Notes: generated by a model from the letters alone, not told the origin. A stretch of DNA of 64,000 nt from an uncultured Candidatus Binatia bacterium (GCA_965215605.1 OZ244070.1:2688001-2752000), one strand, 5' to 3'; positions 28,506-44,278 are shown, counted from the first letter of the stretch. Program-made: numbers and translations.

Positions 28506-29566
28506 TTCGGCTCCATCCCGCCCGACTGCGCGCTGCGGCGGAAAAGCAGCAAGGAGAACCACTGTTTCGGGTCGGTCCAGTGGCCCAGGCTCTCGAGCCC
28601 GAAGGAGCCGAGCAGCACCTGCAGGTCGTCGGGGTCGAACTTGCGGCTGGTCTCCACCAGGATTCCTTCACCCTTCTCCCAGACGAAGGACGCCGAGTGC
28701 CGGGGGAACTCCACCCGGTGGGTCTCGGCGGCGATCCCGTACATCTCCACCCGCTCCCGCGCCCGGCTGTAGCTGCTGCGATAGGCGATTTTCTCCGGTT
28801 GGAAGCCAGCCCCGGTGGCGCGGGTGACGTTGGCGAAGGCGTTCAGAATGAAGGCGGCGGTGACGCCGCGGGAGTCGTTGTAGGCGCGCTCGATGATCTC
28901 CGGCTCCTTGATGCGGTCCACCCCGAGCAGCAGGTAGTCCCGGGGCCCCATGTGGTCGCACAGGTGGGTGAAGAAATGCAGCATGTCGGTGGGAGTGAAA
29001 TTCCCGATGGTGCTGCCCAGGAACACCACGAGCTTGGGAATGTCCGGGGTGATGCTGGTGATGGCGTCCTCGAAGCGGGCCTTGAGCCCGGTGAACGCGA
29101 GCTCGGGAAACATCTCCTCGGCCATGCTCCTGGACGCCATGAGGGCGGTGGCGCTGACGTCCACCGCGGCGAAGGTGCCCCGGCCCCGGGCCCGGCTCAG
29201 CGCCTTGAGCAGATGGACGGTCTTCTTCGAGAAGCCGGCGCCGAGCTCCACGATGCAGTCTACCGGCGCCAGGCTCATCAGGGTGCCGGCCTCCCGCTCG
29301 AGGATGGCGGCCTCGGTGCGGGTGGTGTAGTACTCGGGCAGTTCGCAGATTTCCTCGAAGAGAAGCGAGCCCCTCTCGTCGTACAGGTGACAGGGTTCGA
29401 GCCACCGGGGACGGTCGAACAGCGTCCGGACCATGCCGGCGGCGACCCTTTCCGGGGGGCGTCGCCGGGGAGTCAGAATCGACGGCGCGGTGACGTTCCA
29501 GGTGGCGCGGTCGTCGGTCGAAAGGATCTCGGCGGGTTCACGGGTCTCTGCGGCTCGGGGAGTCAT
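28502..29566 (-). CDS. egtD: L-histidine N-alpha-trimethyltransferase EgtD family
   Basis: YDERGSLLFEEICELPEYYTTRTE, ELGAG, FLGSTIGNF, AYND, ETSRKF; start approximate. Confidence 0.87.
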   Translation of the reverse strand: MTPRAAETREPAEILSTDDRATWNVTAPSILTPRRRPPERVAAGMVRTLFDRPRWLEPCHLYDERGSLLFEEICELPEYYTTRTEAAILEREAGTLMSLAPVDCIVELGAGFSKKTVHLLKALSRARGRGTFAAVDVSATALMASRSMAEEMFPELAFTGLKARFEDAITSITPDIPKLVVFLGSTIGNFTPTDMLHFFTHLCDHMGPRDYLLLGVDRIKEPEIIERAYNDSRGVTAAFILNAFANVTRATGAGFQPEKIAYRSSYSRARERVEMYGIAAETHRVEFPRHSASFVWEKGEGILVETSRKFDPDDLQVLLGSFGLESLGHWTDPKQWFSLLLFRRSAQSGGMEPK

Positions 29567-29734
29567 CCGGTCAATATAGAGAACGGCAGGGATTTGTCCA
29601 CCGGTGTGCCTCCCGGGGCGGAGAACACCGCCTTTGTTGAAATCCAAAACGGCCATTACAGCGCCACGCTTGGCGATCCGTTGCGGGATGTCCCGCTCGC
29701 CGCGGCTACCAGCGTGCCGGAATGCGAGGGATCC

Positions 29735-30211
29735 ATGATACTTGAAGGCTCGTGCCACTGTCGCGCGGTTGCGTTTTCGGTCGAGTCCAAAACGCCACGC
29801 CCCTACATGTGCTGCTACTGCTCGATCTGCCGGAAGACCGCCGGGGGCGGCGGCTTTGCCGTCAATCTCGGCGGCGAGGCGGAGACCCTCACCGTACGGG
29901 GCAGACGCCATCTGAAGATCTATCGGGCGCGGCTCGAGGACGGCAGCGAAAGTCCCGCCGAACGGCGGTTCTGTGGCCGTTGCGGCAGCGCGCTCTGGGT
30001 CTGGGACCCGCGCTGGCCGGAACTGCTCCATCCGTTCGCGTCGGCCATCGACACACCTCTGCCGGCGCCGCCCGAGCGGTGCCACATCATGGTGGACTTC
30101 GCGCCGGGTTGGGTGAGGATCCCGGCGGGCAAACGGGACCCCCACTTCCCGGGTTATCCGGACCAGTCGATCAAGGACTGGCACCGGAGCCGCGACCTTC
30201 TCGGCCCTTGA
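29735..30211 (+). CDS. GFA/CENP-V family zinc protein
   Basis: GSCHC, CYCSICRK, RFCGRCGS. Confidence 0.9.
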   Translation: MILEGSCHCRAVAFSVESKTPRPYMCCYCSICRKTAGGGGFAVNLGGEAETLTVRGRRHLKIYRARLEDGSESPAERRFCGRCGSALWVWDPRWPELLHPFASAIDTPLPAPPERCHIMVDFAPGWVRIPAGKRDPHFPGYPDQSIKDWHRSRDLLGP

Positions 30212-30248
30212 TACGGGATTGCCTGGACCAAGACGCGAGGGGGATCCG

Positions 30249-32306
30249 CTATGATCCGTTTGCCCGGATCGGCCCCCCGGGCGGGACGCTGCCGTAGAGC
30301 GCCTTGTAGGCGTGGTAGTTCCGCAACACCGCCTTGACGTACAGCCGCGTCTCCCGGTAGGAGATCCGCTCGATGAACTCGACGTCATCGGCTGACCCGA
30401 GGTTCCGGGTCCACCGCTCCACCGCTTCCTTGCCGGCATTGTACGCCGCCAGCGCCTTGGCCCGACTGCCGGCGTAGTGTTCCAGAAGCCCCTTGAGGTG
30501 ATGCGCGCCGAGCCTGATGTTCAGTTCCGGATCGAACAGGTCCCGGCTCTCGGGCTCCGGCAGTCCGATCCGCGACGCTTCGTCGCGCGCGGTTTCATGG
30601 AGCAGTTGCATGAGGCCGAGGGCGTTGGCCGGGGACACGGCCCGTGCCCGGAACGCGCTTTCCTGTCGCATGAGCGAGAGCACCAGGTACGGGTCCAGCC
30701 CGTTGTCGGCCGCATACCGCCGCACGGCGCTCCAGTGGGCCAGCGGGTACCGGAATCTCAGCGTCTCGGATGAGGTCGGGGCGCGGGTCGCCAGCGAGAA
30801 GCTGCGATGGTGCGCGTGGGTCCGCGCGTACTCGCGCATGAGCAGCCGCTTGACGCGGGTGGTGCGCTTGGCGTGCCTGCGGACCCGGTCGAGCTCGGGA
30901 TGGGCGAGCCGGTTCAACCCGAGCCGCGCCAGCGCGCGCGCCCGGGCAAGGTGGAACCTGGCCCGCGGGCCCAGAGGCGGGGCTCCGGTCTTCTGCTCCG
31001 GACGAGCCGGCGACGGCGGGGCCGGGAGGGCGACTCCAAGGCCCGCCAGCCGCCGGGTTGCCAGGATCGCGTAGTAGGAATCCCGATCCCTGCGCACCAC
31101 CCGCCGGTACAGCCGTCCGGCGGCGGCGAGATCCTTCAGCTCTTCGGCGGCACGGGCCTCCCAGAAGGCGGCGGCCAACCTGAAGTTGCCGCGTCTGCCG
31201 GCGAGGTCCCGAAAGACGGCCTTGGCCGCCGGGTAGTCGGACCTCAGGTAGTGGATCCAGGCCAGGCGCCAAGCCGCGTCGTTGCGGAAACGGCTGAAGC
31301 GATGCTCCTTGGCGAAGAGCTGCTTATAGGTGCGGATCGCCTTCTCCCACTGCCCCGTGGACTCGTGGATGCGGCCGATGACGTAGACGGCGAAGCGCCG
31401 GCGGAGATGTCCGGGATACCTTCTCCTGAACTCGCGCAGGGTCCGCAAGGCCCCGGCGTTGTCGTCGCGATTCCATTGGATGGTGGCGATCCTCGTGAGC
31501 GCGGCTCCGGCCCGGGCGCGTCCTGGATAGTGTCGGACATACCGGCGGAGGACCTGCTCTTCCTCTTCCCGGAGCCGCAGCTTTCGGTAGACATCGGCCA
31601 GCCCCTCCAGCGACAGCCGGCGGAAGTTGGTTTCCCGCAGGATGCGCTGGTAGAGGTCCGCGGCCGTGCCGTATTCCCGTTCCCGCCGGAGCTGCCGGGC
31701 TTCCCGCAGCATCTCCTCGCCTTTGCGGAGTCCGAGCTGTTTCGGGTGCTTCCGGCGGAGTTCCAGGACCCGTTCACGGGCGCGTCGGCTCCATTCGGAG
31801 CGGGGCGCCCGCCGGCGCGCCTCCTGGTGGAAGGCGTAGGCCTGCCGGTCCTTGCCCACGGCCTCGTGGGCCTGCCCCAGGTAGTAGCCGGCCCGGGCCC
31901 GCGCGTTCCTTCCCCACGGCTTCTCTTTCAACGCGGCGGCGGCGCGGATGGCCGCCTGGTACCGTTTCCGGGCGAGATCCAGCTCCACCAACGCGAAGGA
32001 GGCTCCCCGGGCCCATATGCTCCAGGGGTAGGACTTCCGCAGTTCCCGGAAGTGGTCGCCCGCGGCGTCGTGCTTCCCGGCCTGCAGGGCGATTCGCCCG
32101 AGATAGTAGAGGGCATGGTCGCCGAGGACCAGGTCGGGGTCGCCCAGTGCGCTTCGGAAGAGCGTTTCCGAGCGGGAGTGGTCGCCCTCCGAATAGTGGC
32201 GGTAGGCGCGGGCGAACTCCGATTCCGACCCCGTGAGAGCGTGGACGGAAGCCGCCGCCGGCGCGAGCAGCAGAAACCAGACGAGGACGTAGAGACGCTT
32301 TTTCAT
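30249..32306 (-). CDS. TPR-containing soluble lytic murein transglycosylase (Slt-like)
   Basis: Signal peptide, TPR-like helices, RQES, GLMQL, AYNAG, ETRLYV. Confidence 0.9.
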   Translation of the reverse strand: MKKRLYVLVWFLLLAPAAASVHALTGSESEFARAYRHYSEGDHSRSETLFRSALGDPDLVLGDHALYYLGRIALQAGKHDAAGDHFRELRKSYPWSIWARGASFALVELDLARKRYQAAIRAAAALKEKPWGRNARARAGYYLGQAHEAVGKDRQAYAFHQEARRRAPRSEWSRRARERVLELRRKHPKQLGLRKGEEMLREARQLRREREYGTAADLYQRILRETNFRRLSLEGLADVYRKLRLREEEEQVLRRYVRHYPGRARAGAALTRIATIQWNRDDNAGALRTLREFRRRYPGHLRRRFAVYVIGRIHESTGQWEKAIRTYKQLFAKEHRFSRFRNDAAWRLAWIHYLRSDYPAAKAVFRDLAGRRGNFRLAAAFWEARAAEELKDLAAAGRLYRRVVRRDRDSYYAILATRRLAGLGVALPAPPSPARPEQKTGAPPLGPRARFHLARARALARLGLNRLAHPELDRVRRHAKRTTRVKRLLMREYARTHAHHRSFSLATRAPTSSETLRFRYPLAHWSAVRRYAADNGLDPYLVLSLMRQESAFRARAVSPANALGLMQLLHETARDEASRIGLPEPESRDLFDPELNIRLGAHHLKGLLEHYAGSRAKALAAYNAGKEAVERWTRNLGSADDVEFIERISYRETRLYVKAVLRNYHAYKALYGSVPPGGPIRANGS

Positions 32307-32438: not shown

Positions 32439-33137
32439 ATGGTCGACATCGCCGGTAACTGCAAACGGGTCCTGGAAGGAATCCGCCGCGCCGCGGAGCG
32501 GAGCGGCAGGGATCCGCGGCAGGTCAGGCTGCTTGCCGCCACGAAGACCCAGCCCGTCTCCGCGGTGCGGGCCGCCGTGGAAGCGGGGGTGCGTCTGCTG
32601 GGCGAGAACTACGTGCAGGAAGCGCAGGCCAAGAAGGATCTCGTCGGCGATATTGCCGAGTGGCACATGATCGGACACCTCCAGCGAAACAAGGTGCGGT
32701 CCGCAGCGGAGTTGTTTTCGGTCATCCAGACCCTGGACAACCCGCGCCTGGCCCGGCTATTGGACCGGGAGGGGCGCGAGCGAAACCGGGACGTTCCTGT
32801 GCTGGTGGAGGTCAACCTCACCGGAGAGCAGACCAAGACGGGCGTGGCCGAAGAAGGGCTTGCGCCGCTGTTGCGGGAGGTGTCCGGACTGGAACGGCTC
32901 CGGGTCCGCGGCCTGATGATCGTGCCGCCGTTCGCCGAGGACCCGGAAGCGGGCCGCCCGCATTTCCGGAGGCTCCGGGAGTTGCGTGATTCGCTGAACG
33001 ACCTCGGCCTTGCCAACGTGGCCCTGGACGAGTTGTCCATGGGGATGACACATGACTATGAGGTGGCGGTGGCCGAGGGGTCGACGCTTGTGCGGGTCGG
33101 CACTGCCTTGTTCGGCCCCAGAGGCCCGTCGCGGTAA
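32439..33137 (+). CDS. yggS: PLP homeostasis protein
   Basis: AATKT, GENYVQE, HMIGHLQRNK, LSMGM, VRVGTALFG. Confidence 0.95.
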   Translation: MVDIAGNCKRVLEGIRRAAERSGRDPRQVRLLAATKTQPVSAVRAAVEAGVRLLGENYVQEAQAKKDLVGDIAEWHMIGHLQRNKVRSAAELFSVIQTLDNPRLARLLDREGRERNRDVPVLVEVNLTGEQTKTGVAEEGLAPLLREVSGLERLRVRGLMIVPPFAEDPEAGRPHFRRLRELRDSLNDLGLANVALDELSMGMTHDYEVAVAEGSTLVRVGTALFGPRGPSR

Positions 33138-33166
33138 GCGGGCTCAAACCAACCAGAGGTGGGGAT

Positions 33167-33466
33167 ATGTTCGTGGCGGGAAACTTTCTGCAGGCGGTCG
33201 CTGGACTTCTCGATTTCGCCTTGACTCTCTACGTGTGGCTGATCGTGGGGCGCGCCGTGATCTCCTGGGTCAATGCCGACCCCTACAACCCCATCGTGCG
33301 CATGCTCTGCAACCTCACCGATCCGGTCCTGGACCGGTTGAGGCAGATGCTTCCCATGAGCTTCGGCGGCATCGACATGTCGCCCGTCGCGGCCATCTTC
33401 ATCGCCTGGTTCCTGCGCGCCTTCCTGGTGACGTCGCTCTACGACCTGGCCCGGGCAGTGAACTAG
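33167..33466 (+). CDS. yggT: YggT family membrane protein
   Basis: SWVNADPYNPIV, GGIDMSP. Confidence 0.92.
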   Translation: MFVAGNFLQAVAGLLDFALTLYVWLIVGRAVISWVNADPYNPIVRMLCNLTDPVLDRLRQMLPMSFGGIDMSPVAAIFIAWFLRAFLVTSLYDLARAVN

Positions 33467-33522
33467 TGTTCTGTCCCACGTAATTCTTCACCAAGATGCG
33501 CAGGATTTCTTGTCGTCGGCAA
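33463..33522 (+). repeat. MITE-like repeat, truncated copy
   Basis: CTAGTGTT...AAGATGCGCAGGA...GTCGGCAA shared with the 47829 and 56686 copies. Confidence 0.7.
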
Positions 33523-33562
33523 CAGGGCACCGCTAGCGTGGGCTTGGAACTTGGCCGTGTAG

Positions 33563-33856
33563 GTGGCCGACCTGCACGAGCGGGCGCACTCGGGAGCGTA
33601 CCGGGCGACGCCGTCGCGGCGCGTGAACATCCCCAAGCCCGACGGCGGGACACGACCGCTCGGCGTCGCGGCCATCGAGGACAAGATAGTCCAGAAGGCC
33701 GTGACGGAGACAATCCTGACACCGATATACGAGGCGGAGTTCCTGGGGTTCGGTTACAGGTTCCGGCCCGGACGTGGGACGCACGACGCGCTCACCGCGC
33801 TCACGACCGGAATAAAACGTCGCGAAATCACCTGGGTGGTGGACATTGACGTACGC
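33563..33856 (+). pseudogene. Group II intron reverse transcriptase fragment
   Basis: YRATPSRRVNIPKPDGGTRPLG..EDKIVQ, FRPGRGTHDA, WVVDID; no YADD or downstream domains. Confidence 0.85.
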
Positions 33857-33892
33857 GCTGCAGGACTCGGCATCGCGAGAAGGAATCAAATC

Positions 33893-36232
33893 ATGCGGGA
33901 AAGCGCGCAGAACATGACATCCATGTCGAAGCCCGTTTTCTTCGATCTGGTAGTGGGTCGATACTTCTGGACGATAGCCGTCACATTCCTCGTGACCGCG
34001 GTTCTCGCCGCGGGAGTGCAGCACCTGATTACCGTCAATGTAGGCATCCGAAATCACTTCGATGAACATGACCGGCATTTGATCAAACTTGACGATTTCG
34101 AAGAGACCTACGCAGTGTCGGACAGCGTGCTCGTCATTGTCGCGCCGCCGAACGACACGGTTTTCACGCGCCAAGTACTCGTTGCGATTGAGCAACTGAC
34201 GGAGGTGTTGTGGCAAACGCCTTATTCTGTCCGTGTCGATTCGATAACCAATTACCTGCACACCGAGGGAATCGAGGACACCCTGATTGTCGAGCAGCTG
34301 GTCGACGATGCGGCTTTGCTGGACGAGGTCAAACTCGCCCGCATTCGACAGATTGCGCTCACCACACAGGACACGGCCGGCCGTTTCGTCTCTCGCGACG
34401 GTCGTGTGGCCGGGCTGATCGTGAGCCTGGCAATTCCCGATGAAAAACGGAAACAGCGCAAAATCGACGTGGTCGACGGTCTCTACGATCTTGTCAACAA
34501 ACAGCGCGCGGCCAACCCCGACATCGAATATCACATCTATGGTGAACTGTTGTTGAATCGGGCGGTTCGCGAGGCGCTGAATGAAGATATGTCCTTTTTG
34601 GCGCCCATCGCGTTTGCGATGATGGTTCTGGTGGCCATTCTATTGCTGTGGTCGGTTTGGAGCGTCTGTGGAATTTTTGCGATGATAATTGCGGTGATGG
34701 CATCGAGCTTCGGTTTAACCGGCTGGTTCGGATTGAAATTCTATGCGGAAAGCGGCGCTGCGGTATTCGTTCTGATGGCGATCGCCATCGCACACTCCGT
34801 CCACCTGATCGAAGGAATGACCGATGGAATGCGTCGTGGAATGGAACGTAAAGCCGCTGTTGTTCATTCCCTGCAAATCAATGCCCATCCGATATTTCTC
34901 ACTTCGCTCACAACCATGATCGGTTTTCTGAGCCTGAATTTCTCGGAAATGCCGCCGTTTCGAGTGATGGGAAATATCGTTGCGTTCGGCGCCATGTGCG
35001 CATTCGTTTACGCGGTCACGCTTTTGCCCGCATTGCTGGCGATGATGCCCATGCGGGCACCCGCCGAAAAGAGAAACGGAACGAAAACTTTCAAGCGTTT
35101 GGGAGATTTCGTCGTGTCCAAAAGCACCTTGTTGCTTTGGGCTTTCGTCATACTCGTTCTGGTGAGCGGATATGGCGTCTCGAGAATTAAACTGAACGAC
35201 AACAACAACGCCAAGCTGCTGAACGAAAGCTACGAGTTGCGCCGATCGGGGGATTTCATAAACGAGAACTTTTCCGGGCTGGATTCCTTCGAGTATTCAC
35301 TGGATTCCGGGCGTGCAGGGGGGATCACCGACATCGAGTACCTGCATCGGGTGGATTCGTTCGCCAATTGGCTTCGCGAACAGCCTGAAGTTTCTCACGT
35401 CACCTCGATGGCCGATATCATGAAGCGAATTAATCAGAATCTGCATAATGACGCAAAAGGCTCCTATGCCCTGCCGGCAAACTCCGACCTTGCGGCCCAA
35501 TACCTGCTTTTATACCAGTTCTCCCTACCGGTGGGCCGCGACATAAACAATCTCATCAACTTTGAGCGGTCGGCGACCCGGATGACCGTCGTGATCGGGG
35601 GAATGTCGGTCAAAGAGCAAATCGAGTTGGACAATCGCGCTTCTGCCTGGCTGGGAGAAAACGCGCCGCAAATGCGAACCGGAGCGACCGGCGTCGCCAT
35701 TGTCGGCGCTTACTCGGTGATGAGAAACATCGTAAATATGTTGCTCGGCACCTTCATCGCAATCTCGATCGTGTCGTTGCTGTTGATTTTTGCATTCAAA
35801 AGCCTTCGTTTGGGGCTTCTGAGCCTAATACCGAATTTCGTTCCAGCAATCATCGCCCTGGGGGCTTGGGGTTACGCGGTGGGAACCGTGAATATCGCCG
35901 CATCAATCGTTACCGCGATAGCGTTTGCCATCGTTGTGGACGACACCATCCATCTGCTGTCCAAATACCTGAAATCACGCGCAGAGGGCAAATCACCTTC
36001 CGAAGCTATCGCGCCGACTTTCGAGGTCGTTGGAAAACCGCTGTTAAGCACAACCTTGATTTTTGCGGTGGCATTTTTCGTCTTTGGCGCGTCGGGGCTG
36101 GTGACCAATCAGACGCTCGGGTTGCTGGTCGGAATGACGGTCATCGTTGCGCTCCTTGCGGACCTCTTTTTACTACCGCCGCTTCTGCTGGCGCTCGACA
36201 GGACGAAACACGGGCCAGCGCGCGGCGACTAG
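33893..36232 (+). CDS. MMPL/RND family lipid transporter
   Basis: Own AGGA RBS and ATG; two membrane repeats; TSLTTMIGFLSL, IVVDDTIH. Confidence 0.88.
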   Translation: MRESAQNMTSMSKPVFFDLVVGRYFWTIAVTFLVTAVLAAGVQHLITVNVGIRNHFDEHDRHLIKLDDFEETYAVSDSVLVIVAPPNDTVFTRQVLVAIEQLTEVLWQTPYSVRVDSITNYLHTEGIEDTLIVEQLVDDAALLDEVKLARIRQIALTTQDTAGRFVSRDGRVAGLIVSLAIPDEKRKQRKIDVVDGLYDLVNKQRAANPDIEYHIYGELLLNRAVREALNEDMSFLAPIAFAMMVLVAILLLWSVWSVCGIFAMIIAVMASSFGLTGWFGLKFYAESGAAVFVLMAIAIAHSVHLIEGMTDGMRRGMERKAAVVHSLQINAHPIFLTSLTTMIGFLSLNFSEMPPFRVMGNIVAFGAMCAFVYAVTLLPALLAMMPMRAPAEKRNGTKTFKRLGDFVVSKSTLLLWAFVILVLVSGYGVSRIKLNDNNNAKLLNESYELRRSGDFINENFSGLDSFEYSLDSGRAGGITDIEYLHRVDSFANWLREQPEVSHVTSMADIMKRINQNLHNDAKGSYALPANSDLAAQYLLLYQFSLPVGRDINNLINFERSATRMTVVIGGMSVKEQIELDNRASAWLGENAPQMRTGATGVAIVGAYSVMRNIVNMLLGTFIAISIVSLLLIFAFKSLRLGLLSLIPNFVPAIIALGAWGYAVGTVNIAASIVTAIAFAIVVDDTIHLLSKYLKSRAEGKSPSEAIAPTFEVVGKPLLSTTLIFAVAFFVFGASGLVTNQTLGLLVGMTVIVALLADLFLLPPLLLALDRTKHGPARGD

Positions 36233-36400
36233 CTTCCGGGACGTTTTGTGATGGCCGAAGGCATGAGGCCCTGGACGCGCCGATCACCCCGGTTCCGCCG
36301 GCGTCTCGCGAGCAAACTTCCGCCCGTCCGCGTCCACGTTCGCGGCATGCCGTCATTCTCGACAGCGTCCGTATTGCCGGTCACGAGTGCAGGAGCACCT

Positions 36401-38419
36401 TCAAGACGAAATTTCGCGCAACTGGCTTGCGATGCGCAGCCGAAGTTTCTTCGTAACCGACAATGCCGGGAATGGGTTGATTTTCAGCTTATAGTCTTTG
36501 GGCGGCGGCGCAAAGTCAAAATGATGCGCTATAACCAACACGGTAACCGTCGCCTGCAAATGCATCCATGCCCATCCCGCGCACGAGTGGGTATCCAAGC
36601 CGTTCGGAGCGTATCCAGGACCTTGATGCTCATTGCGCGGCGGGAGGTAACGGTCGATATCGAAGTCGTAGGGGTCTGCGAAGCAATCACTCATGTAGTG
36701 GGCCGCGGTTTGCACAATGTACAACCGTTCCCTGAGCGGCAGTGAATAATTTTCCACCACGCAAGAATTTGCGACATCGCGAAGATGTGTGCTGATAATC
36801 GGATACATTCGCAAGCATTCCATGAGAAAGCGCCTGGTAACGTCATACTTGTCCGGCGTAAACGCTTCTTTATCCGGATCGCCGCCATCGAACAGCGCGT
36901 TTGCCTCTTCACGAATTCTCGCCGCAATATCCGGGTGCCGGGCCAACTCATAAAGCGCGAAACCCAACATGTCCCCTAGATAAATACTTTGAAACACGGG
37001 CGTTACCGCCATCATGAACATCAGGTTTTGCTCCGGGATAAACTGCGGATCGCTGCTGTGCAAAGAAATCAGCTCGTCCGCCAGCTCCCGGGCGGCGCCT
37101 GCACGGTGAATGGGAATGTGGTTCTGTTCGATGCGCCGAAGGAGTTTCTCGTAAAGCTGGAAGCGATACTTCATGCCGGGAGTGCGCGTCAGGAATTTCG
37201 GCAGAAAATCCGCAACGTAGCAAAGGATTGCTTTTTCATTCCATTTGACCAGGTCTTCAAATACATCTTGCGAATTCGTACTAATAAGAACCTGAGACAT
37301 TTGAAAATTGGTCATCGACCGGGTATCGCGCTGTACTTCCAGTGTCGAGCCTGCCTGCCACTTTTGAGTTATCATGAATTGGCGGCTCAGTCGGAACATG
37401 TCATCCAGCCGCTCATGGAAACTGGCCTTCGAGTAAATTTTCCCCATCAGCTTGCGCAATCGAAAATGATCAGCTCCGTCCGTCGACGGCAGTAAATTGT
37501 TTGCGCCGCAAACCGTCTCCATCTTGCGAAAAAAATTGCCGGAAGTCAAAAACCTTCGGGAATTTCGACGCATCCAATGATTGATGTCAGGTCCTGCCAA
37601 AAATGTTCGCGGCCTTTGAAACGGCGGACAGATTTGAAAGACGGGACCATATCGGTCGGCCAGATTCCCGAACAGCGCCGGGAGGTTGCCGTCCCACAAA
37701 TGCCGATTTGCAAACAAGCTCCTTAGGGGAATCTTCGGAATTGGTTTTGTGAGGGGTGAGTGTTGCAATACAGGCGTAATGGCGAGCTGCTTGACAGCAG
37801 TGGAGATGACCCGGTTGATCAGTTCCGTTTTACAAACCTGGTCAATTCGCTGTTTCTCGTTCTCACCCAGCTCGAAAATGAATTTGATGATATCGCACGC
37901 GTTCAAAAGACCGATTATCAGGGAATCCCTCGGGTCTGGAATGATATCCGTGAAAATCACCTTCGCGATTCGCGATTTGATGTACTTTCCAACGGTTTCG
38001 CTTTGGGGATATCGTTCCAATTCCGCATGCCAGGCGCAGTGGTTCGTTGTATAAAACTCACCATCATGGCGCGTCAGAATTTCGGAGTTGATCAACTGCT
38101 TCAGTGTAGCATCGATGATGTCTTCCGAATGAACTGCAAGCCGCTCAATCCAGTATCGCGGTTCTTCGAGATTGGGATGGGATGCAAACTCGTCCAGGCA
38201 TAGATCCAGTGCCGGGTCGCCTGTTTTGGTCGAGTCCAGGAGAAAGAGCGATTCTTCATCTGTATCAATGCGTGATTTCAGGGAGAGATCGGCCAGAACT
38301 GCGCCGATGGTGGCGCAGTTCAGCGTCCAGCCCTCCACTTGGTGGAAATAACCGTTCTGCTCGTTGAGAATCGTCAGGATGAATTCTTGCGGGATATTCA
38401 ACGATTGCTTCGTTATCAT
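36401..38419 (-). CDS. GPP34 (GOLPH3-like) domain-cytochrome P450 fusion
   Basis: N-term GAVLADLSLKSRIDTD...TGDPALD...WI; C-term ECLRMYP, FDIDRY, HSCAG heme Cys; start 38419 or 38431. Confidence 0.8.
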   Translation of the reverse strand: MITKQSLNIPQEFILTILNEQNGYFHQVEGWTLNCATIGAVLADLSLKSRIDTDEESLFLLDSTKTGDPALDLCLDEFASHPNLEEPRYWIERLAVHSEDIIDATLKQLINSEILTRHDGEFYTTNHCAWHAELERYPQSETVGKYIKSRIAKVIFTDIIPDPRDSLIIGLLNACDIIKFIFELGENEKQRIDQVCKTELINRVISTAVKQLAITPVLQHSPLTKPIPKIPLRSLFANRHLWDGNLPALFGNLADRYGPVFQICPPFQRPRTFLAGPDINHWMRRNSRRFLTSGNFFRKMETVCGANNLLPSTDGADHFRLRKLMGKIYSKASFHERLDDMFRLSRQFMITQKWQAGSTLEVQRDTRSMTNFQMSQVLISTNSQDVFEDLVKWNEKAILCYVADFLPKFLTRTPGMKYRFQLYEKLLRRIEQNHIPIHRAGAARELADELISLHSSDPQFIPEQNLMFMMAVTPVFQSIYLGDMLGFALYELARHPDIAARIREEANALFDGGDPDKEAFTPDKYDVTRRFLMECLRMYPIISTHLRDVANSCVVENYSLPLRERLYIVQTAAHYMSDCFADPYDFDIDRYLPPRNEHQGPGYAPNGLDTHSCAGWAWMHLQATVTVLVIAHHFDFAPPPKDYKLKINPFPALSVTKKLRLRIASQLREISS

Positions 38420-38499
38420 GTTACACGCCATTCCTCGTGATTTGATTCTTTCTCGTGATGCCGATGCCTGCGGCTTCCGGTCCCCTTTTTTCCATCCCT

Positions 38500-41400
38500 C
38501 TACGAGAACTTCTTTGCCGTTCCGGTTCTGCCGTCCGGCGTCATGTCCACAGCCGCCACTCTTCCAGCCATGACGCGTTGACTTCTCGCCGGTAATATCA
38601 TGTTCATTCGTTGGTTCCGGCGACGCTGCTCGTAGAGGGCAAGCGCGTGCAGGGGGAAATACTGGCGGTAGAGCACGTAATCCAGGAGCGCCGTTCGAAA
38701 AAAAACGCCGGCCATGTCCTGCTTGGGCCAAGTCCCGTCTGCTTCCTGCGTATCAAGCAGGAAGCCGGCACCCCGGGAAATCGCGGCCCAGTCTGTTGTG
38801 CCCGCCTCGAGGAGCGCTATCAGCGCCCACGCGGTCTGTATGACCTGGCTTTCCTGATGCGGGACGTAGCGACCGCTCAGGCAGCCGCTGTGGTGTTCGC
38901 CCCATCCCCCGTCTTGCTGCTGGCGCTCCAGCAGCCAGCGGCAAGACGCGCGCAGCGCCGGATCGCTTGGACCGGCCCGGTCCGAAACAAGGCCCCTGAT
39001 GCCGAAAAGGGTGCCGTAGATGTACTGTACCCCCCATACGCCGCGCCAACTGCCGTCAGCCATCTGGTGCCGTCGCAACCACAAGACGCCCCGGGCGATG
39101 GAGTCGGCAACCACCGACCTGTCGCCAATTTCGGGAAATCGATCCCGGCAGACAGCCAGCGCCGCGATACAAGACGCGGTACACTCGACAAAAGAACGCT
39201 CGGTCATCGATTCGCCGAACATCTCTGCAGGATTCAAGCGCTCCAGATCAATTGCCGAGCGCCTGGCCTCATAACTGCCGAAGCCGCCGTCGGGGTTCTG
39301 GCTTCGCAACATAAAGCCAATCGCTTCGCTGAGGACGGACGGGTCCGTGTCGTCTCCGTGGGCGGCGACGAGTCCGAGCACCGCCTCCGCCGTGCAGTCA
39401 CTCACCGGCCAGCCATGCCACCCGCCAGCGAAGCACCAGCCGCCTTTGGGGTCAGCGCGGTAGGCTTCACGAAACCGCTCAAAGCTGGTCTTGATCTGTT
39501 CGCCGAGCAGAAAATCGGCGCCGCGCTGGAGCGCATCCCGAACACGGTCCGTCTCAGGCATGGTAGCCAGAGCCTGCAGCACGAACCCGGTATCCCACGA
39601 AGCGCTTCTTGCTCCGGTGACCCGCAAGCCGTCGTCTTCGTCTTCCCATATCCAGGAACCCATTTTCGATAGCGCCCGTCGGCAATCGGTATCGTCCGGA
39701 TCGTGCAGCCACAGCGCCAGAATGTTGAGAATGCCGCTGACCGGAGAGATGCTCGTATGGCCGGTGGTCTGCAGTTCCCATCTGATCTGCCCGAGAATTG
39801 TATCCATGCACCGTGTGCGCAGGTGTTTGCTGTGGAACCGCTCGACCAGCCGTGCAAATCCATATCCGAGCCTGAGCCAGACGGACGGCCTTGCAAAAAG
39901 ATCGGCGTCCCGAAGCCGGTTCCTGGCGGCGAGAAAATCGGCCCTGGCAAAACCTTGCGGATAAAGCTCTTCCCGCAACGCGGCGATAACTGGTGTGACG
40001 GGCACCTGGAACCGGCGGGCATAAATCGACGCCATCGCCATATAGAGGAGCCGTGTATGGCAGTACCAGTTGGAGGGATGCAGCGGTATCTTCCGCGGCA
40101 GGCTCCACAATTCCGGCAGAACAGCGTTCACGCCGTTCCAATCATAAAGATTAAGGAGCGCCAGCCATAATTTTCCCCAGCTCGGAATGCCGAGAATCCC
40201 CTCGGCCTGAATGAACCGCCGGGCCGGCGCGATCAGGGGGTCATCCGGCAATACACCGAGCAGCCGCGCCGCGACATAAACGAGGGCGGTGACGAACAGA
40301 TGGGGCGACGAATGCTCGTGCAGGCCCCATGAACCGTCCTGGAGACGAGTCCTCTCAAACGAGCGCAGCACCCGGCGCCGCTTTCCCGGATCGAGCGGCT
40401 GGCCGATGATGTGGTGGAGCAGTACGTATTGCGCCGTGAGCATGGGACACCAGACCATCTCGCCTTCCCAGTCGCCGTCCTCTCTCTGCAGTTGCACGAG
40501 GCATTGGGCGGCGCTGTCCAGCGCCGGGCCGGCATCGGGCGAATCGACCTCTCCGGCGCGGGCAGGCCGCTCCGATTCGGTTTTCGAAGGGATGGAATAG
40601 GGGAATGCCCGTCGTAGGTGCTCTCGCGCATTCGCGCTTTCCTCCCTTCCTTCCCTGGTCGCCTCCCTCAACTGGCGGATGCCGAGCAGCAACCACCAAA
40701 GGCGAGCAGCCAACGCGCGAAAGTTCACCAACATCCGACGCCATGAAAGCCTGCGGATGGAGAAGGTTATCTCCCGGCTCATTGCCCGCGCGACAGTTTC
40801 GCAAAAGGAGAAAACCGTCATTGACATGGACAAGTCTTCGCAGGCAAGTATCCGCATGGTCCGGTCCCGATACCCCGAATTCGCTCGCCAGCCCTGGTAA
40901 ACGGCCTTTCTGAGCATAGCCGATTCGGTGCGGTAATCGCCCAACACCTCATAAAGCCCCATGGCAAGGAACTCGGGAACACGGGTCGCCTGGAACCGCT
41001 CTGCGGTGAATTGCTGGAAGTCCTCGCTTTTGGAGAGCGCCAGCGCATCGCCGAAGCCGAGAGTCATGCCGACTGCCGTCATGGGATGATAGTGTCCGGC
41101 GGCATCGCCGATAAGCACCCGGCGCGGGCTCCCGTACGTGACACGCGGTCTCAATTGGTTGGGGGCGGCATGGAATCGCCTGACGTGCAGCGCTTCGACG
41201 AAGGCTGGCCCGAGATATCCCGGAAGCAGCTTGCCATAGGATTCAGACAAGAAACTTATCCAGTCCTTGGAATTCCAGCAGTCCAATGGGACATCCACGT
41301 TGACCCGGACGGAGCCGTTCGCAAGTCCGTAAATGAAAATTGGACCCGGCCCGCCCAGAACCACATGTCCGTATCCTTCAAACGGCAGGTCGGCGTCGTG

Positions 41401-41955
41401 TAACGTCACCCCGAGCATCCGCGAACAGAGCATCGGGTCCATGGAATATCCCAAGGATCTGCGCACGATCGAAGCGCGGCCGTCGGCGCCGATAATTCGG
41501 TCGACATTTATGGCGCATTCCGAGGCGTTTTTCGAGAAGGTGATCCGTTCGTCTTCAACGACCTTGACCCGCGCGTGGGAAATGAAATCGACATTGGCCT
41601 CGTTCTCTATGACCTCGCGGAGGCTTGAAACGAGCAGCGCGTGGTCGCATACCAGACCCCGTGAACCGTCTGGATAAGGAAGCAGGATCGGGTCGGAGTC
41701 GTCGTCGGGCAGCACCACGAAACCGACGCCCGACTTGCTGCCGGAAAGCGTGTCGACATCAATCCCGATGTCACGCAACAACTTCACTGCCGGCGGATGC
41801 AACCATTCGCCTGCAAGGCGTTTAGACGCTTTCGGATTCGCTTCGAGCAGGGCCACCTTAACGCCCTTGCGCGCAAGGACAATTGCGCACACGCTTCCCA
41901 CCGGTCCCGCGCCGACAATGGCGGCATCATACTTCAGCACCGAGTCAGCCCTCAT
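38500..41955 (-). CDS. Squalene epoxidase-oxidosqualene cyclase fusion
   Basis: GAGPVG, GEWLHP, GADG, GDAAGHYHPMTAVGMT followed in frame by WYCHTR, VSDCTAE and several QxxDGxW repeats. Confidence 0.9.
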   Translation of the reverse strand: MRADSVLKYDAAIVGAGPVGSVCAIVLARKGVKVALLEANPKASKRLAGEWLHPPAVKLLRDIGIDVDTLSGSKSGVGFVVLPDDDSDPILLPYPDGSRGLVCDHALLVSSLREVIENEANVDFISHARVKVVEDERITFSKNASECAINVDRIIGADGRASIVRRSLGYSMDPMLCSRMLGVTLHDADLPFEGYGHVVLGGPGPIFIYGLANGSVRVNVDVPLDCWNSKDWISFLSESYGKLLPGYLGPAFVEALHVRRFHAAPNQLRPRVTYGSPRRVLIGDAAGHYHPMTAVGMTLGFGDALALSKSEDFQQFTAERFQATRVPEFLAMGLYEVLGDYRTESAMLRKAVYQGWRANSGYRDRTMRILACEDLSMSMTVFSFCETVARAMSREITFSIRRLSWRRMLVNFRALAARLWWLLLGIRQLREATREGREESANAREHLRRAFPYSIPSKTESERPARAGEVDSPDAGPALDSAAQCLVQLQREDGDWEGEMVWCPMLTAQYVLLHHIIGQPLDPGKRRRVLRSFERTRLQDGSWGLHEHSSPHLFVTALVYVAARLLGVLPDDPLIAPARRFIQAEGILGIPSWGKLWLALLNLYDWNGVNAVLPELWSLPRKIPLHPSNWYCHTRLLYMAMASIYARRFQVPVTPVIAALREELYPQGFARADFLAARNRLRDADLFARPSVWLRLGYGFARLVERFHSKHLRTRCMDTILGQIRWELQTTGHTSISPVSGILNILALWLHDPDDTDCRRALSKMGSWIWEDEDDGLRVTGARSASWDTGFVLQALATMPETDRVRDALQRGADFLLGEQIKTSFERFREAYRADPKGGWCFAGGWHGWPVSDCTAEAVLGLVAAHGDDTDPSVLSEAIGFMLRSQNPDGGFGSYEARRSAIDLERLNPAEMFGESMTERSFVECTASCIAALAVCRDRFPEIGDRSVVADSIARGVLWLRRHQMADGSWRGVWGVQYIYGTLFGIRGLVSDRAGPSDPALRASCRWLLERQQQDGGWGEHHSGCLSGRYVPHQESQVIQTAWALIALLEAGTTDWAAISRGAGFLLDTQEADGTWPKQDMAGVFFRTALLDYVLYRQYFPLHALALYEQRRRNQRMNMILPARSQRVMAGRVAAVDMTPDGRTGTAKKFS

Positions 41956-42298
41956 CAAAAGGCGCTGAGTGCAGCGCGGCGGCGGTTGTGGAGGGCAGGT
42001 CGCCGTCCTGGATCGAGAGCAGGAACGTTTCCGGACCCTCGATCTCGTCATCATACTCGGTGGGAATAGAGAAGCGGTACCGGGGCCACCCCGCCGGGAT
42101 AGTCACCGTGTAGGGGCCGCCCGTGTAGTCCCCTTGTTCCGACGCGGTCTGGTCCGTGTTCACCAAGGTAACAGTTGTATTCGTGATCCGAGGCCACGAG
42201 AACATCAGTTTCCAGCTCGAGCACCTCGCCTTTGGCCACCGAGTTGGTGTTGTCCAGATACGCAACACGCTTTTCGGGTCACTTCCCGTACCGGACAC
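41945..42298 (-). pseudogene. Calx-beta domain fragment, probably frameshifted
   Basis: TASEQGDYTGGPYTVTIPAG...FSIPTEYDDEIEGPETFLLSI; upstream part of the ORF does not look protein-like. Confidence 0.65.
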
Positions 42299-42687
42299 CG
42301 TATTGTATTGGTGTCAGCCCGGCCGGATCGGGCCGAATGCCGCTTAACCTATGAGTTTTGGGGTGTGCTCCTGCGTATTCACTCGAGAATGAGGTCTTGT
42401 ATTTCGAAAGCGATTCCCTTATCGGGTCAACCCGCAAACCATGTTCCATGGAATACCTTGGCTATGTGAACGAAATTTGTCAAGAAAATTGATTTGAAAT
42501 ATTTGGCATCATGAGCGCCCAGAAGCGATGGCTTTCGTCTATGACGCCGACGAGGACGCTGCTCCCCAGGTCCTCTGAGGTGGTCCCGGTTTGTAGGACA
42601 GGAAGGCCACCCACCGGGTGATAACCCGCTGGGCCGCGAAGCCGTCTGAGAGTTCGTGCAGTACTACGGCATTTTGTAGCGGCGGCC

Positions 42688-43002
42688 ATGGCCCGCAATC
42701 CCGGGAAAAGGCCGGATGCGCGTGCACTTCCTCCCGATCACAAACAGCCCCGCACGGCTCGTGGCGGCGAACCGGCGCTGCATGACCGCGGGACAATCGT
42801 GTGGACGTTCAGCATCGTGGATCAGGATGGACCTTGGGGTTGGCGTACCGCGGCCGCTCCGGCGTGGTGGGGAGAGATCCTGCCCAAGCTTCAGGACTTC
42901 GAATCGATGACGTGGGCTGAGATTATGCAGGTCGCCGGCGGACGAGCGAGAGGCAACAACAGTCACTTCGTGCAGGCAGAAAGATTGACCAGGCAAGCTT
43001 GA
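42688..43002 (+). pseudogene. Hypothetical protein, likely C-terminally truncated (possible toxin-antitoxin remnant)
   Basis: DGPWGW...ILPKLQDFESMTWAEI...NSHFV ends abruptly 35 nt from the tRNA 3' end. Confidence 0.4.
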
Positions 43003-43037
43003 AACCCGCCCTTCCTACGGCGTCGTCCTGAGGATTG

Positions 43038-43124
43038 TGGTGCGAGGAGGGGGACTTGAACCCCCACGCCATTGCTGGCACTAGCCCCTCAAGCTAGCGC
43101 GTCTGCCTATTCCGCCATCCTCGC
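43038..43124 (-). tRNA. tRNA-Leu(GAG)
   Basis: GCGAGGA/TCCTCGC acceptor stem, CTAGC-TTGAGGG-GCTAG anticodon arm, long variable arm, GGTTCAAGTCC, CCA end; downstream of secG. Confidence 0.97.
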
Positions 43125-43145
43125 ACACATCTCGGTGGGCATCGT

Positions 43146-43493
43146 TCATGGAGAAGCCGGTTGTGCCGGCGGTTGCTCGGGACTCTCCGCCGCGGGTGGG
43201 TCGGCCGGGGCCGGCGCCGTCTGGGTTTGAGGGGCCACGGTTTCAAAGATGCTCGATACCGGATCCTGCTCGGCGAAGTACCCCAGGGTCAGACTGGTCA
43301 GCATGAACACCACGGCCATGCCGGTGGTCACCCGGGTCAGGAGATTGCCCGCGCCGCTGCCGCCGAAGACGGTGGTGCTGGCGCCTCCGCCGAAAGCGGC
43401 GCCCATGTCGGTTCCCTTGCCGGTTTGCAGCAGGACCACGACGATGAGTCCGAGGCAAACCAGAACGTGAACGGTCGTCACCAGGATGATCAT
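43146..43493 (-). CDS. secG: Preprotein translocase subunit SecG
   Basis: VLLQTGKG..GAAFGGG...LTRVT; overlaps tpiA stop. Confidence 0.95.
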   Translation of the reverse strand: MIILVTTVHVLVCLGLIVVVLLQTGKGTDMGAAFGGGASTTVFGGSGAGNLLTRVTTGMAVVFMLTSLTLGYFAEQDPVSSIFETVAPQTQTAPAPADPPAAESPEQPPAQPASP

Positions 43494-44278
43494 GCGTCCT
43501 CTATCCGTGGGGTGTCGTTCGCCGCGAATGCGTTCACGATGGCGGCAAAGCTCCGTGGGTCGAGACTGGCGCCCCCCACGAGGACCCCGTCGACTTCCGC
43601 CACCGCGGCCAGCTCGGGCGAGTTGTGGGGGTTTACGCTGCCCCCGTACAGAATCGGTATCTCCCGCGCGATCTCTCCCCCGAGCCTGCGTGCCAGTCCT
43701 TGCCGTATCCAGCCGTGGGCTTCGGCGACCTGCGCCGGGGCGGCGTTCTTTCCGGTGCCGATGGCCCACACCGGTTCATACGCTACCGTGAGAAATTCAT
43801 TAACACTTTTCGAAACACCCTTCAACGCGCCCGACAGTTGCGTGGACAGGACCCGGCGCATGCGCCCGGCGCGGCGTTCCTGGAGGGTCTCCCCGATGCA
43901 CAGGATGGGTTTCAGGGACGCTTCCAGGGCGGCGGCGAGCTTCCGTCCGATGTCCCGGTCGGTCTCGCCGAAGAGGCGCCGTCGCTCGGAATGGCCCACG
44001 ATCACGTGGCTGCAGCCCGCGTCCCTCAGCATGCCCGCCCCGACTTCGCCGGTGAACGCCCCCTGGGGCTGCCAGTAAAGGTTCTGCGCGGACAGGAGCA
44101 GGGGGCTTCCCTTGAGCGCCCGGCGCACGGTTTCGAGGGAGGTGAAGGGCGGCGCCAGCACCACCTCGACGGCGGGGGAGCGGTTGCCCACCAGGCGCCG
44201 CACGCCGCGCGCCAGCGCCAGCGCCTCGGCCTGGGTACCGTGCATCTTCCAGTTGGCTATGACCGTGGGCCTTGCCAT
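43490..44278 (-). CDS. tpiA: Triosephosphate isomerase
   Basis: NWKM, GHSERR, AYEPVWAIGTG, YGGSV, VGGAS. Confidence 0.98.
   Translation of the reverse strand: MARPTVIANWKMHGTQAEALALARGVRRLVGNRSPAVEVVLAPPFTSLETVRRALKGSPLLLSAQNLYWQPQGAFTGEVGAGMLRDAGCSHVIVGHSERRRLFGETDRDIGRKLAAALEASLKPILCIGETLQERRAGRMRRVLSTQLSGALKGVSKSVNEFLTVAYEPVWAIGTGKNAAPAQVAEAHGWIRQGLARRLGGEIAREIPILYGGSVNPHNSPELAAVAEVDGVLVGGASLDPRSFAAIVNAFAANDTPRIEDA

Follow-up and report, generated by a model that had tools for sequence, protein, structure and literature searches.

How do a predicted squalene epoxidase-oxidosqualene cyclase fusion, a GPP34 domain fused to a cytochrome P450 and a transporter of the RND superfamily come to stand together in one compact block of bacterial DNA, and what might they do there? 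The question is raised by a 64,000-nucleotide stretch from an uncultured Candidatus Binatia bacterium (GCA_965215605.1 OZ244070.1:2688001-2752000), which we call the window and whose first letter is position 1 in the coordinates below. We propose, with a probability of about 0.6, that the three genes constitute a mobile, self-contained cassette for making, modifying and moving a lanosterol-type sterol in a sponge-associated bacterium. An original prediction, made from the sequence alone, had placed all three genes here, and Pfam searches recover each of them at those positions (Table 1). The coordinates of the open reading frames (ORFs) also bear out the arrangement it described: the two fusions are co-directional, with 68 bp between them, and converge on the transporter, the stop codons being separated by 168 bp. 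The strand labels alone needed correction: both fusions are encoded on the minus strand, and the transporter gene runs along the plus strand. None of the three reading frames is interrupted (1151, 676 and 779 codons).

The N-terminal part of the first fusion has the FAD-binding fold (FAD_binding_3, 74.7 bits) and the SE domain (PF08491, 78.4 bits against a cut-off of 20.1) that together mark a squalene epoxidase, within residues 42-387 of an 1184-aa ORF. The C-terminal part, residues 513-1142, carries both squalene-cyclase domains of an oxidosqualene cyclase, SQHop_cyclase_N (PF13249, 174 bits) and SQHop_cyclase_C (PF13243, 187 bits). The first 300 residues match human squalene monooxygenase (6c6n) at 3.6e-26, and the best solved relative of the cyclase half is human lanosterol synthase (1w6k, 3.6e-134), with squalene-hopene cyclase at 2.8e-50. 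The best NCBIfam model for this half is TIGR03463 at 729.4 bits, which is under the curated cut-off of 851, compared with 266.8 bits for the hopene cyclase model; the broader TIGR01787 is matched at 505.6 bits against a cut-off of 322.7. Judged by these scores, the cyclase half is nearer to the oxidosqualene cyclases than to the squalene-hopene cyclases.

The catalytic residues agree with this assignment. The VSDCTAE of the fusion aligns under the VSDCTAE of 1w6k, with its aspartate under human D455; we take the aspartate of VxDCTAE to be the oxidosqualene cyclase motif, and DxDDTA to be that of hopene cyclases. D853, C854, T855 and A856 do not vary among 23 fused sequences, nor do the residues aligned with V453, C449 and T381 of human lanosterol synthase, which in the fusion are valine, histidine and an alanine beside a one-residue gap. 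In the bacteria that Wei et al. 2016 (PMC4919349) examined, lanosterol is reported to accompany V453, and cycloartenol I453. Because a valine is aligned with V453, the product of the fusion is, by that rule, probably lanosterol, although the histidine at 449 and the alanine at 381 leave room for parkeol or another possible product.

The genome holds a source of squalene, and it lies outside the window, as had been expected. The hpnE, hpnD and hpnC genes adjoin ispH and dxs at C1:1544160-1547205 (L084:6161-9206), some 1.18 Mb from the cassette. The fusion is the sole SQHop_cyclase_C match in the genome; hpnCDE is thus kept in a genome that has no squalene-hopene cyclase. A second candidate, an SQS_PSY gene at C1:2877571-2878329, was rejected as a squalene synthase: its neighbours on both sides are amine-oxidase-family genes, a Rieske gene lies close by, and the group looks like a carotenoid cluster. 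Searches by tblastn with representatives of related sterol clusters found no orthologue of CYP51, ERG24, SdmA or SdmB in the genome (best matches 25-33% identical, or none) and no intact sterol methyltransferase (SMT), only a 98-aa fragment. As genes for downstream demethylation are lacking, the end product is likely to be a lanosterol-type 4,4,14-trimethyl protosterol or a derivative of it oxidised by the P450.

The second gene encodes GPP34 (PF05719, 80.8 bits; about residues 13-213) and p450 (PF00067, 78.3 bits; about residues 235-676) in one polypeptide, which is the architecture named GPP34_L. Its top 120 relatives have the same two domains at 49-99% identity, and homologues suggest that translation may start 12 nt downstream, at 38419. 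The heme cysteine C617 and the E538-x-x-R541 motif of a heme-thiolate P450 are invariant in 25 aligned members of the family, as is much of the rest of the P450 core, and the ratio of nonsynonymous to synonymous substitution rates (dN/dS) is 0.09-0.25. The gene is under purifying selection, and this together with the invariant motifs points to a working enzyme. The heme loop reads PNGLDTHSCAG in the window and P[YF]GLGTHxCxG in most relatives; the asparagine where most have tyrosine or phenylalanine is found in the window protein and its nearest relative.

The fused P450 resembles CYP51 in fold, but it is not one. An AlphaFold2 model (mean pLDDT 85.6, pTM 0.77) places the P450 part best on Methylococcus capsulatus CYP51 in Foldseek (TM 0.81), with P450 BM3 nearly equal, and the top PDB sequence match is M. 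marinum CYP51 at 7.7e-14. The true CYP51 of related clusters scores 1e-102 to CYP51, and the fused P450 is only 27% identical to it over 150 aa. Furthermore, QSIYLGD lies under the AGHHTSS of the CYP51 I-helix, whose His-Thr signature we take to be diagnostic of CYP51, and the family as a whole reads QS(I/L)Y(L/V)GD. The entire GPP34-P450 family is without the I-helix acid-alcohol pair (window 36950-37010, about residues 478-491), and S482, Y484, G486 and D487 are invariant in it. The reaction may possibly be a non-canonical oxidation or a rearrangement. The GPP34 domain matches yeast Vps74 at an E-value of 0.3 over only 63 residues, so that the residues that bind phosphatidylinositol-4-phosphate (PI4P) are not alignable.

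The third protein belongs to the RND/MMPL family and has a sterol-sensing domain; MMPL (124.2 bits, cut-off 20.5), Sterol-sensing (32 bits, cut-off 22.3) and the Patched sterol-sensing domain (25.9 bits) are all matched over their cut-offs. The best NCBIfam model is HAE3 (TIGR00921), at 180.7 bits under a cut-off of 351.9. Assignment to either known family of triterpenoid pumps was rejected: the protein scores 19.6 of 1400 bits for BstA, and 97.8 of 751.85 (TIGR03480) and 33.7 of 1100 for the two HpnN models. Its nearest solved relatives are mycobacterial MmpL5 and MmpL4 (2e-09), with HpnN at 1.8e-05. It is under purifying selection (dN/dS 0.16-0.21). Hence the pump resembles the known triterpenoid pumps in kind but, to judge from the models, is a member of neither family, and its designation as a candidate sterol transporter follows from the match to the sterol-sensing domain and from its linkage. 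The original prediction spoke of a make-modify-export island; genes of the synthesis, modification and transport types are present, whereas the direction of export and the chemistry of the P450 are what we infer from them.

The cassette is an insertion. The interval between yggS and the tRNA-secG-tpiA block spans 9.9 kb in the window and is 360-415 bp in four same-genus genomes (G014, G022, G024 and G001), all four of which are cassette-free at this locus. Two of these, G014 and G022, are the nearest relatives at the flanks (92-95% DNA identity) and have the tRNA-Leu-secG-tpiA block 382 bp after yggS. The empty site is also seen in public run X5, where one contig runs from 33447 straight on to 43032 across 34 other letters, and other contigs start at 33857 and stop at 42280. 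The G+C content, predicted to be lower in DNA beside a tRNA-Leu, is indeed lower (0.50-0.57 over 34-39 kb and near 0.60 over 39-43 kb, against 0.65-0.70 in the flanks), and a tRNA-Leu(GAG) closes the island on the right. The locus therefore has the position of a tRNA-associated genomic island, inserted by a tRNA 3' end at a site that is empty in relatives, but it lacks an integrase with flanking direct repeats: no integrase family was found in the ORFs scanned, and no exact repeat of at least 10 nt from the tRNA region within 33000-34000 or of at least 12 nt within the island.

The sole trace of a mobile element is a truncated reverse-transcriptase (RT) fragment covering profile positions 1-78 of 205 in RVT_1 (residues 23-100 of the ORF at 33563-36232), which lies just outside the shared core and is not in the DNA common to loci L001 or L006. 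By motif we take it to be group-II-intron-like, and it is debris of a mobile element. The longest ORF, 33563-36232 (889 aa), reads as an RT-transporter chimera with no stop between the two parts; in relatives the transporter begins at about 33893.

The same cassette is found elsewhere. By blastn it is 95.6% identical to L001 over 8438 bp (33857-42283), 96.5% identical to L006 over 8103 bp (33899-42001) and 91.5% identical to L002. The comparison with L006, from genome G021, shows transfer most clearly: the yggS and tRNA-secG-tpiA flanks of that genome are 73-76% identical to those of the window, and its own yggS-tRNA interval is 1.4 kb long and cassette-free. Its cassette (G+C 0.57, against 0.67 in the L006 flanks) is found instead beside another tRNA-Leu (CAA; L006:8946-9032), roughly 0.9 kb from the 3' end of that tRNA. 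The tRNA 3' end faces the fusion gene in both genomes, and an integrase is seen in neither. Only 3 of 27 other species of the genus have the fusion (98%, 83% in a partial copy, and 65% identity), and the fused form was found in none of 33 sister-family genomes, six of which have a cyclase-only protein at 27-31% identity. Horizontal acquisition and transfer between genomes, the former already suspected in the original prediction, are strongly supported by these data.

Synonymous divergence between the window and L006 is lowest in the fusion (0.014), intermediate in the P450 (0.076) and highest in the pump (0.22), a spread of about 15-fold. Because it differs in this way from gene to gene, the cassettes are mosaics, which implies recombination between cassette variants. 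A FastTree phylogeny of the fusion (79 rows, quick and unrooted; L011 and L080, aligned over fewer than 1000 residues, were omitted) places the window, L006, L001 and L002 inside Paracoccaceae/Rhodobacter rows with support of 99-100, and two other Binatia rows, L024 and L027, together with L067, in the other half. The tree shows a mixing of phyla and does not identify the donor.

Far from being unique, the island is a reduced version of a sterol cluster that is widespread among sponge symbionts. A protein collection holds 821 relatives of the fusion of similar length, of which the 120 listed are 66-94% identical, and a scan of one genome per species gave 673 fusion loci. Neighbourhoods were counted in the best 80 of these 673, which carry labels of Alpha- and Gammaproteobacteria, Nitrospirales, Binatia, Acidimicrobiia, Bryobacterales, Opitutales, Gemmatimonadota (Palauibacter) and Thermodesulfobacteriota. 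The usual order is SdmB-SdmA-ERG24-CYP51-fusion-SMT, and clustering places each of these five neighbours in at least 43-52 of the 80 loci, these being lower bounds since antisense shadow ORFs hide some. The neighbours were identified as ERG24 (Pfam ERG4_ERG24, 221 bits), SdmA (NCBIfam, 398 bits; cut-off 600), SdmB (NCBIfam, 299 bits; cut-off 600), SMT (Pfam Sterol_MT_C, 73.9 bits) and CYP51 (M. capsulatus CYP51 in the PDB, 1e-102).

Linkage of the three genes, which had been offered as a check on the pathway, recurs across these loci. The three-gene order of the window is also present in L001, L002, L006 and L067 (L067 and L098, from G001, are one contig). Within 10 kb of the fusion, the GPP34-P450 occurs in 28 and the transporter in 24 of the 80 loci, many of which are shortened by contig ends. 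A GPP34-P450 match that reaches the P450 domain is found in 38 of 40 fusion-bearing genomes (L001-L040), some of these matches being split or cut by contig ends; the remaining two genomes have GPP34-only matches. The association holds from the other side too: when metagenome loci are picked by GPP34-P450 alone, 43 of 61 have an SMT, an RND pump, an amine-oxidase-family flavoprotein or the fusion beside it. The other 18 are mostly short contigs, and several of the 61 are near-duplicates. Sponge-metagenome runs X8 and X11 contain contig pieces of the three genes at 90-99% likeness, none of which spans a junction; they show relatives of the cassette rather than this organism. Many locus titles name sponges or sponge-symbiont taxa (Spongia_Bin9, lac_sponge, Porisulfidus, Poriferihabitaceae). 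The cassette thus appears to be part of a gene pool common to sponge-associated bacteria of many phyla. Relevance to a host, which the original prediction allowed for, fits these titles and the literature.

The GPP34-P450 is also found where the cyclase is not. It occurs in 19 of the 27 same-genus genomes, compared with 3 of 27 for the fused cyclase. At nine loci (L088-L095 and L099, in G014, G024, G007, G019, G022, G027, G025, G020 and G001), eight of them from cyclase-less genomes and one a second copy in G001, it stands beside an RND pump in every case, and this pump shares 76-77% identity with the Nitrospirales type. Seven of the nine loci also have one or two methyltransferases, and five an amine-oxidase-family flavoprotein. 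The three methyltransferases scanned, from L089 and L090, have a Sterol_MT_C domain above cut-off. Five near-complete same-genus genomes (97-98%, in one or two contigs) contain SQHop_cyclase_C in no case and Sterol_MT_C in four. As the pump accompanies the GPP34-P450 at all nine loci while the other enzymes vary, these two genes form the constant unit, and the pattern suggests that some same-genus symbionts may act on sterols that they cannot make.

The window genome carries the remains of such a module outside the window, at G000:C1:1142748-1144912 (L086:6749-8910). Four fragments are left: residues 4-160 of the pump, 51-148 of the SMT, and 38-262 and 577-683 of the GPP34-P450. The flanks align at 87-96% with the intact SMT-RND-flavoprotein-GPP34-P450 modules of G014, G022 and G024, relative to which there are internal deletions of about 4.3 kb and 0.95 kb. 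Since the decayed module is syntenic with the intact ones, the module ancestral to the genus has disappeared from this genome, in which the acquired cassette provides a P450 and a pump anew. G021, whose cassette is the 98% one, has the cassette copy only, and G001 has both; four genomes are too few to make a rule of replacement.

These modules give most weight to a different account of the locus, namely that the GPP34-P450 and the pump handle sterols the cell did not make, by uptake, remodelling or traffic of sponge sterols, with transport perhaps inward or between membranes and the fused cyclase as an add-on. The count of 19 against 3 genomes, the constant pairing with a pump, the sterol-type methyltransferases in cyclase-less genomes and a syntenic module reduced to fragments, as if replaced by the cassette, all fit it. 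We nevertheless think it rather unlikely to be the principal role of the window genes: nothing that would serve uptake, such as an outer-membrane receptor or binding protein, was identified, a non-sterol lipid could be the substrate of the methyltransferases, and the MMPL/HpnN/BstA type of RND pump is known to carry lipids away from the cytoplasmic membrane towards the outside. Moreover the account extends the one we prefer and does not exclude it, as the window has a cyclase. An effector role is improbable. It would make the GPP34-P450 a secreted protein that binds host PI4P and blocks phagosome maturation, with the sterol neighbours incidental, and it draws on the proposal that GPP34 plus P450 occurs only in sponge symbionts and modulates phagocytosis (PMC11706023), the main text of which seemingly does not consider gene neighbourhood. 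The same genomes (those of L001-L040) contain many free-standing GPP34 ORFs of about 229 aa, and GPP34 matches there also open frames of 385-697 aa other than the P450 fusion, so that other GPP34 fusions may exist. But the association with sterol enzymes and an RND pump reappears no matter which gene the loci were selected by, the protein lacks a hydrophobic signal at its N-terminus (the GPP34 domain begins at about residue 13), and the invariant heme cysteine and ExxR motif, with the dN/dS of 0.09-0.25, point to a working enzyme.

Least probable of all, in our estimate, is that the cassette is a recent passenger, unexpressed or decaying and with no role in this host. The RT debris at its edge and the decayed second module in the same genome are compatible with such a history, as is the dN/dS of 0.61-0.65 of the fused cyclase against its two nearest copies; set against these are the intact frames with their catalytic motifs kept, the purifying selection on the P450 and the pump, and the retention of hpnCDE although the fusion is the only cyclase. 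That same dN/dS is one of several points that weigh against a sterol-producing cassette, and it may reflect relaxed constraint or merely a short divergence time, dS being only 0.014-0.046. The others are that the cyclase half does not reach the cut-off of its best model; that lanosterol is called from one residue, V453, with alanine beside a gap at 381 and, at 449, histidine as in cycloartenol synthases; that the pump is far under the curated cut-offs of both known triterpenoid RND families; and that the GPP34-P450 is so much more frequent than the cyclase that its primary job cannot depend on de novo synthesis. For the P450 itself, the conserved I-helix threonine is absent (leucine or valine stands there in the aligned sequences) and no redox-partner gene, ferredoxin or reductase, was found in the cassette; the enzyme is perhaps something other than a typical hydroxylase.

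With these points weighed, we favour a model where squalene made by the chromosomal hpnCDE would be epoxidised by the N-terminal flavin monooxygenase half of the fusion, and 2,3-oxidosqualene would be handed directly to the C-terminal half, which would close the ring system, probably to lanosterol. The cytoplasmic GPP34-P450 would then act on the membrane sterol, with the GPP34 domain as a peripheral membrane anchor, and the RND transporter would shift the sterol between the cytoplasmic membrane and the cell envelope or exterior. A broader conjecture, which we put forward tentatively and hold to be less likely than not to be correct, is that the GPP34-P450 and the HAE3-type pump together are a previously unrecognised sterol-handling machine of sponge symbionts, in which GPP34 fixes a soluble P450 to a membrane by lipid binding and the pump shuttles sterols through the envelope, whoever made them. 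Joined to the fusion it would serve autonomous production, and joined to SMTs in cyclase-less genomes it would serve remodelling of host sterols. If so, unusual sponge sterols, including side-chain-alkylated ones relevant as biomarkers, could be joint products of host and symbiont.

Table 1. Features of the island and its borders in the window, with the evidence for each.
Feature	Coordinates	Strand	Evidence or remark
yggS	32439-33137		left flank
yggT	33167-33466	+	last core gene on the left side; Pfam YGGT 73.5 bits
Inserted island, ~9.6 kb of lower-GC DNA	33467-43037		between yggT and the 3' end of tRNA-Leu
Truncated reverse-transcriptase fragment	33629-33862	+	Pfam RVT_1 29.4 bits; in frame with the transporter ORF
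Shared three-gene cassette, a unit also in other genomes	33857-42283		blastn
RND-superfamily transporter (MMPL Pfam family, HAE3-like) with sterol-sensing domain, 779 aa	33893-36232	+	
GPP34-P450 fusion, 676 aa	36401-38431	-	Pfam
Squalene epoxidase-oxidosqualene cyclase fusion, 1151 aa	38500-41955	-	Pfam
Spacer from cassette to tRNA, without recognised gene	42284-43037		42303-42575 partly common to L001 and L002 (blastn)
tRNA-Leu(GAG)	43038-43124	-	3' end towards the island; ARAGORN; Rfam tRNA 53.1 bits

Outside the cassette, the left flank consists of a lytic transglycosylase gene, yggS and yggT, and the right flank of the tRNA-Leu, secG, tpiA and pgk. Four ORFs of the spacer (41969-43002) matched no Pfam family at E<=1. 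Rfam, searched on 32500-43600 at E<=0.1, returned only the tRNA and no group II intron RNA. A scan of 33400-43100 gave two promoter-like and eight terminator-like sites, below the shuffle means of 4.6 and 11.0. A search of public sequencing runs listed none of RNA that contains the stretch. An ORF at 28502-30439 on the minus strand, unrelated to the cassette, has a histidine-specific methyltransferase domain (Methyltransf_33, 288 bits), which is presumably that of the family of the ergothioneine enzyme EgtD. In other genomes a conserved protein of about 280 aa with a weak tetratricopeptide repeat (TPR) match adjoins the pump at most of the Nitrospirales loci L031, L032, L041, L043, L051, L055, L057, L058, L060, L065 and L071; it is absent beside the pump in L058 and L065, and the window genome has a 53%-identical copy at C1:1961130-1961867. 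Compared with the PDB as a BstC-like partner it gave no meaningful match (best E 0.019), and it could be a periplasmic partner of the pump.

Parts of this picture are already in print, at least in the main texts of two papers: the fused SMO/OSC proteins (Brown et al. 2023, PMC10070321) and the GPP34-P450 (Microbiome 2025, PMC11706023). Supplements of these two papers apart, we found no published account of the cassette as a unit, of a fresh insertion with a known empty site, of the tie between GPP34-P450, RND pump and sterol enzymes, or of the cyclase-less methyltransferase modules. Our literature search found no paper joining GPP34, P450 and sterol, and none on steroid-biosynthesis gene clusters in metagenome-assembled genomes of sponge symbionts that links these parts. 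Among the loci examined, the window holds the smallest mobile form of the sponge-symbiont sterol gene set: it packs three genes into 8.4 kb, passed from one species to another only a short time ago, and its empty target site is known. The neighbourhoods give the GPP34-P450 family a testable function in sterol metabolism, where so far only phagocytosis modulation has been proposed. Bacterial sterol genes in sponges also bear on steranes as fossil evidence for early animals, a point made in the main text of Brown et al. 2023 (PMC10070321), and symbionts that modify sterols which they are unable to synthesise would affect the way in which sponge sterol profiles are ascribed.

The closest known systems are the sponge-symbiont sterol clusters described by Brown et al. 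2023 (PMC10070321), whose methods mention trimming "fused SMO/OSC homologs"; their fusion is of the same family as ours. The window cassette differs in having no CYP51, ERG24, SdmA/B or SMT, the fusion being accompanied only by the GPP34-P450 and the pump, and the terms P450 and transporter are absent from the main text of that paper, supplements apart. The GPP34_L proteins of PMC11706023 have the same architecture as the window protein and are reported there to be exclusive to sponge-symbiotic bacteria of many phyla. That paper reads them as modulators of host phagocytosis through PI4P binding, and its main text, supplements apart, contains no mention of sterol, steroid, squalene, cyclase, methyltransferase, RND or MMPL; here they are linked to genes for sterol synthesis and methylation and to a pump. 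With CYP51 the fused P450 has in common its fold and its top structural and PDB sequence matches, but the I-helix signature is replaced, and CYP51 and the GPP34-P450 coexist in many clusters. The pump is like BstA, the sterol transporter of Methylococcus, and HpnN, the hopanoid transporter, in its RND superfamily, its sterol-sensing-type domain and its place beside triterpenoid synthesis genes, and unlike them in falling outside the curated models, with HAE3 as the best. Finally, Gemmata obscuriglobus, an example of the minimal sterol producers among bacteria, makes lanosterol and parkeol only (summarised in Wei et al. 2016, PMC4919349). Like the window it has an epoxidase and a cyclase without downstream demethylation genes, and a protosterol end product would be expected in both, but the window combines the two activities in one polypeptide and places them in a mobile cassette with a dedicated P450 and pump.

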